IMG/VR virus record: IMGVR_UViG_2698536476_000008
Reading direction: 5' to 3' (one strand)
Length of the DNA stretch: 64,000 nt
From: a virus
Taxonomy: Duplodnaviria > Heunggongvirae > Uroviricota > Caudoviricetes
Numbering within the stretch: the stretch's first letter is position 1; each line of letters begins with the position of its first letter. The translations under genes were made by a program, and so were the position numbers. The notes below the pieces were generated by a model. The model saw only the letters and a list, made by a program, of their open reading frames with translations, was not told the DNA's origin and made no database searches. Of the stretch, positions 45,662 to 46,924 are shown in pieces.

Positions 45662-46924
45662 ATGAGCACTTCAGCACAAAACCAATCAATCGAAAATGTA
45701 TGTATCCCTGATGTCCTGAATGCCGGTATCCCGGCCATTATCCAGAACATCCGGGCCGCGCAACGCCGCGTTAGTTGTGATGACCTCACAGCACGTTTTT
45801 TTGATAATGCGGTTCAGTCAGCGGAGATGCTTCACGCACAGCTTATTGATGTTTATAACGCAGAAGCTGATAGCCATAACTCCCTGGTAGATGCAGCTGA
45901 AAATATGCAGTTGGATCTCGGTCTGAAGGGTAAAGAAATTGAAGAGCTTCAGCTGGAAATTGAACATTTGAAACGCCAGCAACAGGACGCGATCGACGAT
46001 GCGACGCATGACGCCAACCAGCGTGCTGATAATGCCGAACGTATAAGCATTGAGCTGGAAACAAAACTCAATGAAATGACCGCGATGGTTGAACTGCGGA
46101 ACTCACAGATTTCAACGCTAAAATCTCAATATAAAGAGATCATGAAACTTGATCCTTTTAACCTTGAGAAACGCTATAACAAAGCTAAAAGCGAGCGACA
46201 GGAACTGCGTAAGCAGGTCGCCGACCTTAACCAACAGCTCAAAAAAACTATTAAAGATGCAAGTGAGGCGCGCGTGGCATTTGCTAATAAAAAAGCAGAG
46301 GTTACCGCGCTGGTTAATGAGAATGCCAAATTTGCGACGCTCAAGAAGGAAATGTATGGCATTACTGAGCGCCGTTTCCCTGCAAGCAAACTTCATCCGA
46401 CGTTAGGGCAAATCTCCTTCTTCCCGCGCCTCCTGGCTTATGGGATCTCATCGCCTAAAGAGTTCAATAACGAGCGTCCTTATATCGTTTCTAAGCTGGA
46501 CTTTGCTTATCAGTTCTGCTGCGACATGGGCTATGCCATTGATATCCGAATCAACGAATGGTTGATGCCAAACTTCCAGCCGTTGGCAATTTTCCGCGAG
46601 TTCCAGCCGGAAGGTTGGGTAGAGTTCTTCCATGAATTGATCTGTAAAGAGATGGAAAGCCGTCGCCCGGAATTGGTCCGTCGAGTTGAGTGGGCGCAAG
46701 AGGTTATGTTGGCAGATGCAGAGCTGCCGTTCGAACCGGAATTCATTGATGATCTGGCAACTAAAGGGCTGCATACCCTGTTTGATGTGGTTACCCGCCG
46801 TCATGAGCAGTTGGTTGTCGAATTGGGTTTAGAGGAAACTGCGGCAAGAAGACTTCTCGATGTTTGCTATGCACGTAGCGATGCATGGGAAAAAGAGAAC
46901 GGCGGCACTATTTACGTTCGCTGA
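45662..46924 (+). CDS. Coiled-coil protein with unassigned C-terminal domain (420 aa)
   Basis: ORF track; heptad-like central region. Confidence 0.5.
   Translation: MSTSAQNQSIENVCIPDVLNAGIPAIIQNIRAAQRRVSCDDLTARFFDNAVQSAEMLHAQLIDVYNAEADSHNSLVDAAENMQLDLGLKGKEIEELQLEIEHLKRQQQDAIDDATHDANQRADNAERISIELETKLNEMTAMVELRNSQISTLKSQYKEIMKLDPFNLEKRYNKAKSERQELRKQVADLNQQLKKTIKDASEARVAFANKKAEVTALVNENAKFATLKKEMYGITERRFPASKLHPTLGQISFFPRLLAYGISSPKEFNNERPYIVSKLDFAYQFCCDMGYAIDIRINEWLMPNFQPLAIFREFQPEGWVEFFHELICKEMESRRPELVRRVEWAQEVMLADAELPFEPEFIDDLATKGLHTLFDVVTRRHEQLVVELGLEETAARRLLDVCYARSDAWEKENGGTIYVR

Follow-up and report, generated by a model that had tools for sequence, protein, structure and literature searches.

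The control region and the pmgR-pmgS unit

The window analysed here is a stretch of 64,000 nucleotides from a virus of the class Caudoviricetes (IMG/VR record IMGVR_UViG_2698536476_000008). On its plus strand, an open reading frame at 45662..46924 starts with ATG and codes for a protein of 420 aa (48 kDa, pI 5.2); the position and length given in a preliminary description of the region agree exactly with the ORF list. It is virtually certain that this ORF represents pmgS from a phage-plasmid of the P1 type and that the cassette in front of it has the anatomy described below. A query of 1701 bp spanning cassette and ORF has matches in 19 phage records, with 98.6-99.6% identity, among them P1 (AF234172/NC_005856), P7, SJ46, RCS47 and JL22. 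Nucleotide identity to P1 is 99.2% over the 1701 bp. The protein is 99.3% identical to PmgS from P1 (AAQ14063), with three changes (S2I, C14S, E99Q), and 100% identical to its homologue from phage JL22. The corresponding CDS is annotated as pmgS in the P1 record AF234172 and as shtB (coding for ShtB) in P7. These are essentially the same gene, with the same neighbours and operators, and no difference of substance separates them. The family model phrog_1660, named 'PmgS-like head morphogenesis', matches over aa 1-420 with an E-value of 2e-195. The gene order of P1 is also kept, with ppp-pmgQ before the cassette, pmgR immediately upstream of pmgS, and pap downstream. Both pmgS and the operators OpmgRa and OpmgRb were already known, the P1 locus having been fully annotated in 2004.

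Operators for the repressor C1 were searched for across the whole window with the 17-bp asymmetric consensus ATTGCTCTAATAAATTT, allowing for up to 3 mismatches. There are 11 such sites, compared to 0.32 expected by chance, and none of 100 shuffled sequences reached this number. Two of them make up the cassette: OpmgRa (formerly Op86a) at 45362..45378 on the plus strand, with the 17-mer ATTGCTCTAATAATTCC, and OpmgRb (formerly Op86b) at 45411..45427 on the minus strand, with the 17-mer ATTGCTCTAATAAAAAA. Each departs from the consensus at 3 positions, and the two share a perfect 13-nt core, ATTGCTCTAATAA (13/13). Both sites are annotated in P1 as monovalent operators, OpmgRa as a protein_bind feature of AF234172, and for OpmgRa the record states that it 'controls expression of pmgR and pmgS'. 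The cassette and pmgR are base-for-base identical to P1. OpmgRa and OpmgRb differ from the other C1 operators of P1 in being inverted, spaced by 49 bp from start to start, and enclosing a conserved RNA hairpin. The other inverted operator pair in the window (31304-31331) is unlike them, as its two sites directly overlap. OpmgRa shares bases with the -35 hexamer (TTGCTC) of PpmgR, a predicted weak promoter which was not found by our own promoter scan. From this arrangement, it is reasonable to expect that pmgR and pmgS are repressed by C1 in lysogens.

The element between the operators is an RNA hairpin that resembles an intrinsic terminator (45387..45416, plus strand), identified by its folding energy and by its conservation in relatives. 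Its stem has 11 bp, among them 4 G-C pairs, and is formed by 45387-45397 and 45404-45414, which leaves a loop of 6 nt (45398-45403). A run of six T occupies 45411-45416, with four T inside the stem and two beyond it. The folding energy is -13.4 kcal/mol (z = -5.7). When RNA is read through the cassette, the operator arms can pair as well, for a total of -26.9 kcal/mol. The hairpin is absent from the output of a simple consensus terminator scan, probably because the scan prolonged the stem into the A/T tract, which left a shorter T tail. In the portion of the P1 record considered here, no terminator is annotated at this hairpin.

The operator-hairpin-operator layout is kept in the homologous intergenic regions of four relatives, namely Cronobacter phage JK004, two Salmonella P1-like elements, and a relative with only 53% protein identity. 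Across the five sequences, 98% of the cells of the inner helix are paired, and in 4 of the 11 pairs both partners have changed in a compensatory way. Of 500 shuffles, 1 attained the covariation score, and with only 5 sequences the statistics are thin. The G-U and U-G pairs of the hairpin would be C-A mismatches on the opposite strand and so fit an RNA from the plus strand only. Because these pairs are valid on the plus strand alone and are accompanied by compensatory changes, the covariation pattern supports the prediction of a plus-strand RNA hairpin or terminator. This covariation support is new, though modest. One of the Salmonella elements carries an identical C-to-T change in both operator arms. 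In a relative with 27% protein identity, a perfect 15-bp inverted repeat of different sequence is found at the same place. The cassette thus keeps its architecture even where protein identity has dropped to 53% and 27%. L004 and L003 have this architecture with a different operator sequence. The operator-terminator-operator anatomy, which had first been noticed from the sequence alone in the preliminary description, is thus upheld by the P1-annotated operators, by RNA folding, and by a conserved hairpin with compensatory pairs. We infer that the cassette may serve both in repression and as a roadblock to transcription.

The preliminary description had the 420-aa gene follow the cassette and did not mention pmgR. 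The cassette does lie upstream, but the gene directly behind it is pmgR (45442..45660, plus strand), and pmgS comes second. pmgR, which is supported by the ORF list, by phrog_3177 and by the P1 annotation, codes for a basic protein of 72 aa (pI 10.1) and is the first gene of the unit. The two genes are likely to be translationally coupled, since the ATG of pmgS follows 1 nt after the stop codon of pmgR (TGAAATG). Downstream of pmgS, a second hairpin resembling an intrinsic terminator is located at 46944..46972 (plus strand). It has an 11-bp stem with 6 G-C pairs and a run of seven T, made up of the last two T of the stem and five more. This hairpin is listed by the terminator scan and, at -18.1 kcal/mol (z = -4.8), is stronger than the one in the cassette. 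The next C1 operator, OpmgT (formerly Op88; 47503..47519, plus strand), is found both by pattern match and in the P1 annotation. It abuts the stop codon of pap, and the next unit under C1 control begins here, which sets the boundary of the context considered. Judged by these predicted signals, pmgR-pmgS is an insulated two-gene unit, because a second terminator-like hairpin follows pmgS and the next C1 operator comes after it. The pair is kept in P1-like phages as well as in D6, L003 and L004.

Architecture of PmgS

The N-terminal two-thirds of PmgS are predicted to be helical, with a conserved region first and two long helices after it. The long helices form a coiled-coil region at aa 41-232 (45782..46357, plus strand), as judged from AF2 secondary structure and from a heptad score. 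The AF2 helices extend over aa 41-160 and aa 166-232. The heptad score, which is crude, has positive values at about aa 71-158 and 171-238, and in the P1 record a coiled coil is marked at aa 75-220. The preliminary description had called PmgS a coiled-coil protein, and the AF2 helices together with the positive heptad score confirm this. The helices are separated by a conserved K-E-x-M-x-L-D-P turn at aa 158-165 (46133-46156), in which K158, E159, L163, D164 and P165 are invariant.

Coiled-coil segments also account for a group of weak matches to SMC, LmuB and JetC. Membership in these families, which have an ATPase head and a hinge, was rejected after searches of NCBIfam and PADLOC. The matches are compositional, are restricted to coiled-coil segments, and reach only 18 bits where the cut-off is 729 (TIGR02169).

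The preliminary description had left the C-terminal domain unassigned. It remains true that PmgS itself matches no Pfam family above threshold, with only sub-threshold coiled-coil noise, but the domain can now be partly assigned. Structure prediction, which had been named there as a check, yielded a fold with an alpha/beta and a helix-hairpin-helix part. A first full-length AF2 model, built from 10 sequences, was poor over aa 258-297 (pLDDT <50) and was replaced by a model of the C-terminal domain based on 38 diverse sequences (pLDDT 94.8, pTM 0.88). According to this model, we propose that the C-terminus consists of a family-specific alpha/beta subdomain joined to an (HhH)2 domain of the type found at the N-terminus of RAD51, in the acidic repeats (AR) of NusA and in the C-terminal domain of the RNA polymerase alpha subunit (alpha-CTD). 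This assignment is new here.

The alpha/beta and helical subdomain covers aa 236-347 (46367..46702, plus strand) and carries the motifs RP..V, LDF, RINEWLxP and RRPELVRRVEWA. It has no convincing structural analogue in Foldseek searches of PDB and BFVD and no sequence match in PDB, and its invariant residues include no polar constellation of the kind expected for catalysis. With the C-terminal domain as a query, Foldseek returned nothing below an E-value of 0.1 from BFVD. With the full-length model, the match to PDB is confined to the HhH part.

The (HhH)2 domain covers aa 348-413 (46703..46900, plus strand). The PmgS C-terminal domain shows the five-helix fold with two helix-hairpin-helix units that characterizes this class, and (HhH)2 domains were matched by both sequence profile and structure search of PDB (N-terminal domains of RAD51/RadA, NusA, RNA polymerase alpha-CTD, and also SAM domains). 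The best PDB match of the family profile is the RAD51 N-terminal domain (3.5e-7), followed by Brr2, RadA, RNA polymerase alpha-CTD and NusA. A phmmer search of PDB with the single PmgS sequence returned only keratin and L29-type noise. Among 63 relatives, the Pfam family HHH_5 is matched by 19 and RNA_pol_A_CTD by 12, the latter with a best E-value of 5.3e-7. Elsewhere in the family, the second hairpin mostly retains K-G-[IFLM]-G and the charge is mostly near neutral. In the P1 clade, the domain is acidic (net charge -8) and both G-h-G hairpins are degenerate, with LPFEPE and LGLEET in P1 PmgS instead of the DNA-phosphate-contacting loops. Binding of DNA by P1 PmgS itself is doubtful because both hairpins are lost and the net charge is -8.

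PmgS differs in its overall architecture from all the proteins to which the (HhH)2 domain is related. In RAD51, RadA and RAD51C, the domain goes with a RecA ATPase core, which in PmgS is replaced by the coiled coil and the novel alpha/beta subdomain. The KH and S1 domains of NusA, with its AR1 and AR2 repeats, and the N-terminal domain of RNA polymerase alpha are also missing from PmgS, and the G-h-G hairpins are lost in the P1 clade. The resemblance to DisA, the DNA integrity scanning protein, is architectural only. PmgS has no diadenylate-cyclase domain, and no homology between the two is detectable outside the HhH part. Homology of the C-terminal domain to the OB/Zn/HhH region of LigA was also considered, on account of sequence P0108, and was rejected because P0108 turned out to be a junction chimera with LigA sequence up to 'FQVGR' and PmgS-type sequence thereafter. 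No LigA chain is among the 60 best PDB matches listed for the profile of the domain.

The matches to alpha-CTD and NusA could indicate that PmgS acts on host transcription, through mimicry or binding of the (HhH)2 domain of alpha-CTD or the acidic repeats of NusA. The 12 relatives matched by RNA_pol_A_CTD and the PDB hits to both proteins point in this direction, as do the acidity of the P1 domain, which is similar to that of the NusA repeats, and the UniRef name of one relative ('RNA polymerase alpha subunit C-terminal domain-containing'). The best matches, however, are to the N-terminal domains of RAD51/RadA and not to alpha-CTD, and the generic (HhH)2 fold is the only shared feature. With no recurring transcription-factor genes in the neighbourhood and no phenotype, we regard such a role as highly improbable.

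Relatives of PmgS and their genomic neighbourhood

A profile of the C-terminal 199 residues was compared to 1.84 billion representative sequences. At an E-value of <=0.001, the PmgS family comprises about 98 clusters, counted at 50% identity. Most members have a length of 350-470 aa and match the profile at their C-terminus, and all of the 63 aligned relatives match phrog_1660. An ssrA-like C-terminus ending in -AA occurs in 27 of 74 relatives, where 0.6 would be expected. A second protein homology search with the profile of the C-terminal domain yielded P1 fragments only. A locus search with the P1-clade alignment returned only near-identical P1 loci, and one with P0071 returned nothing.

The genomic context was inspected for about a dozen loci outside of P1. 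The gene is always located in an early region of a temperate phage, devoted to recombination, replication or methylation, and in none of these loci is it found inside the structural gene block. In prophages from Yersinia, Pectobacterium and Serratia, it follows genes for RecT and a YqaJ/RecE-type exonuclease. These are also found upstream in Aeromonas phage phiARM81mr, with an integrase gene and a small ORF in between. In a Salmonella locus, the gene comes after that for an Rv2179c-like exonuclease, and the gene for a D12 methylase is two genes further on. RdgC-like genes are neighbours at other loci, which include N15-like elements, where they lie beside the gene. DNA methyltransferase genes are adjacent to pmgS homologues, or within about two genes of them, at several loci. 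In two Vibrio phages and in L096, the homologue immediately precedes such a gene, with stop and start codons that overlap or adjoin, and in L103 it immediately follows a C5 methylase. No PmgR homologue was found beside distant homologues of PmgS, those of lambdoid and N15-like prophages included. About 4 kb downstream of the homologue in Aeromonas phage ST4, there is a gene for a terminase.

Such neighbours may indicate that PmgS proteins are anti-defence or host-takeover factors, either as anti-restriction partners of orphan methyltransferases or as decoys for coiled-coil defence proteins of the SMC type. Methyltransferase genes are adjacent in six lineages, in three of them with overlapping or adjoining stop and start codons, and in D6, L003 and L004 the string of genes to which pmgS belongs begins with the anti-restriction genes darB/ulx. 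An early gene that is non-essential in the laboratory host would agree with such a function, as would the acidic C-terminal domain of the P1 protein and the weak similarity to LmuB, JetC and SMC at the level of coiled coils. Methyltransferases, however, are common in early regions anyway. The similarities lie far below the family cut-offs and cover coiled-coil segments only, and neither PADLOC nor any anti-defence family is matched. Moreover, anti-restriction was unchanged in the 24 viable P1 knockouts, which by inference include the pmgS deletion (Gonzales 2022, PMC9024508). We therefore consider an anti-defence function unlikely.

Published phenotypes and the role of PmgS

Of 29 single-gene knockouts in P1, five (pmgA, B, C, G and R) abolished the production of infectious virions, and the remaining 24 showed no defect in plaquing or anti-restriction (Gonzales 2022, PMC9024508). 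The deletion of pmgS is in the strain list of that study and is not among the five non-plaquing mutants. A search of the main text of this virion-proteome paper, including the text of figures and tables, did not find the word 'pmgS' (Gonzales 2022, PMC9024508). By CRISPRi, pmgS is non-essential, and its deletion is cited as non-essential as well (Piya et al. 2023). In other papers, pmgS is used only as a conserved P1 marker or appears as an entry in transcript tables. A literature search for PmgS, PmgS-like and Op86 retrieved no functional study. The names PmgS and ShtB suggest that the protein serves in morphogenesis or in a sheath, but no experimental support for this was found. The preliminary description had named, as an outcome that would speak against its reading, clear homology to a P1 protein already characterised and with a known routine function. 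This applies only by half, as the protein is indeed a named P1 protein, but the name records a 'putative morphogenetic function' that lacks such support. As a P1 marker gene, pmgS has been carried through the databases as 'head morphogenesis' with no phenotype behind this label.

[quoted passage not shown] PmgS might assist PmgR when heads are completed, without being essential itself. The two genes are adjacent and likely coupled, and they are paired in P1-like phages, D6, L003 and L004. Their products are oppositely charged, long coiled coils are common among scaffolding and assembly proteins, and the homologue is named a putative prohead scaffolding protein in the GenBank record of D6. A helper of this kind would have to be reconciled with the lack of a plaque defect in the deletion strain, with non-essentiality by CRISPRi, and with the silence of the virion-proteome paper's main text (Gonzales 2022, PMC9024508). 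The sites annotated directly upstream of the unit are C1 operators instead of a late promoter of the Lpa type. Where homologues occur in lambdoid or N15-like prophages, they have no PmgR nearby and are far from the structural genes, and the -AA ends of 27 of the 74 relatives suggest rapid turnover rather than a structural role. A virion morphogenetic protein would be needed for particles, be present in virions or be encoded in a late or structural module, and none of these properties was found for pmgS. A morphogenetic role is disfavoured by the non-essentiality, by the C1-controlled position, by the early-region context of the relatives and by the -AA ends, and we rate it as improbable. The 'head morphogenesis' label of the family is probably wrong.

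The C-terminal fold, the C1-controlled promoter region and the neighbours of the relatives all point to early DNA metabolism. Our favoured reading, to which we assign a probability of roughly 0.45, is that PmgS is made early and serves as an accessory adaptor when the phage handles its DNA, and that it is not a virion-building protein. It is derived from the fold and the gene neighbourhood. In a lysogen, C1 bound to both operators would shut the weak promoter that overlaps OpmgRa and would also block any transcript escaping the cassette hairpin. Upon derepression, pmgR-pmgS would be read as an early transcript. The product is predicted to be an acidic and elongated protein, with an N-terminal helical region, two coiled-coil helices connected by the LDP turn, and a compact C-terminal module in which the alpha/beta subdomain packs against the (HhH)2 domain. 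PmgS could then act as a coiled-coil adaptor in recombination, replication or modification. Most relatives have the canonical K-G-I-G hairpin and may therefore touch DNA directly. With its degenerate hairpins and strongly acidic domain, the P1 clade is likelier to rely on protein-protein contacts, as in the acidic repeats of NusA.

Several observations count against PmgS being such an adaptor. Neighbourhood in mosaic early regions is weak as functional evidence. Wherever pmgS occurs in P1-like phages and in D6, it is accompanied by pmgR, the gene with the head-tail-joining phenotype, and the isoelectric points of PmgS (5.2) and PmgR (10.1) would fit a complex. The terminase gene downstream of the ST4 homologue, and the weakness of PpmgR together with its absence from our promoter scan, also have to be listed here.

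For the family as a whole, we tentatively raise the possibility, at somewhat less than even odds, that PHROG 1660 is a mis-named and widespread family of short-lived early proteins from temperate phages and phage-plasmids. These would share the layout of a coiled coil, the novel alpha/beta subdomain and an (HhH)2 domain, with an ssrA-like -AA end in many of them. Their partners would be RecT/exonuclease recombination modules together with orphan DNA methyltransferases, and they would act either as an adaptor that tethers DNA or in anti-defence. What is added here to the known P1 locus is modest, namely the covariation of the hairpin, a partial C-terminal fold, and doubt about the 'head morphogenesis' label. 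The family is found in many prophages from enterobacteria, Vibrio, Aeromonas and Pseudomonas, and if this view of it is true, annotation pipelines should stop assigning PHROG 1660 to 'head and packaging'.

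C-terminal ends and possible fusions in the PmgS family

A frequent characteristic of the PmgS family (relatives assigned to PHROG 1660) is a C-terminus that ends in two alanines. Among 74 full-length representatives with pairwise identities of at most 50% (taken from the set P0040-P0110), 27 terminate in -AA, e.g. as KAA, EAA or VAA, while only 0.6 such ends are expected from composition. These ends resemble the C-terminal degron of the ssrA/ClpXP system. The -AA end is absent from the copy in the window (45662-46924, + strand); P1 PmgS terminates with IYVR.

The 480 aa protein P0002 from E. 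coli has 95% sequence identity to PmgS and also a Pfam match to C5-methylases. P0108 (472 aa) is a chimera to which an NAD-dependent DNA ligase contributes domain Ia and the adenylation domain (Pfam match with 6.5e-96, residues 66-315), followed by a PmgS-type C-terminal domain. The two parts are joined at 'FQVGR|INDLDW', which, judged from the E. coli LigA sequence, appears to be where the OB domain of LigA begins. P0108 could be a genuine fusion of two genes or else the product of a misassembly.

Genes adjacent to pmgS and its relatives

In several unrelated temperate phages, genes for DNA methyltransferases (Dam/D12, MT-A70 or C5 type) are direct neighbours of PmgS-like genes or are found within about two genes. 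Such neighbours occur in the loci L088 (6912/6914), L089 (7996/7996), L096 (8113/8113) and L103 (4674-5780), and methyltransferase genes are also found near the PmgS-like genes of L087, L093 and L101. For three of these gene pairs, the stop codon of one gene overlaps or adjoins the start codon of the other.

In phage D6 and in the two metagenomic relatives that retain the pmgR-pmgS pair (L003, L004), a darB-like gene (approximately 2260 aa) is located just upstream of the gene string from pmgM to pmgR-pmgS and has the same orientation; in D6 it is accompanied by an ulx-like gene. In P1, darB is presumably located elsewhere in the genome.

Downstream of pmgS, a strong terminator-like hairpin (46944-46972) separates the gene from pap (46997-47503), which starts with a TTG codon and for which no promoter is annotated in the P1 record. 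The Pap protein has a match (PF25109, 3e-11) to the HAD phosphatase domain found in polynucleotide kinase.

C1 operator pairs and remarks on existing data

The window contains a second pair of inverted C1 operator matches (31304-31320, + strand, and 31315-31331, - strand). These overlap by 6 bp and thus differ in geometry from the pair upstream of pmgR (45362-45378, + strand, and 45411-45427, - strand), which is spaced by 49 bp. In a P1-like element from Salmonella (L102), both arms of the pmgR operator pair carry the identical C-to-T change (TTTGTTCTAATAA; columns 19 and 77 of alignment A8), which suggests a concerted change of both sites, perhaps accompanied by an altered repressor.

According to an Extended Data legend in the SPARDA preprint (10.1101/2023.06.08.544223), pmgS is one of five P1 regions over-represented among the short guide RNAs that a short Argonaute system binds during P1 infection. 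A high level of early transcription, or the hairpins on either side, may account for this enrichment.

In phage vB_EcoM-Ro157c2YLVW (NC_050153 / MH160767), the segment that matches 45442-45660 of the window is annotated with a feature that has the gene name 'L' and whose product is given as 'RNA-directed RNA polymerase L', evidently an annotation error. The label occupies the place of pmgR in other records.
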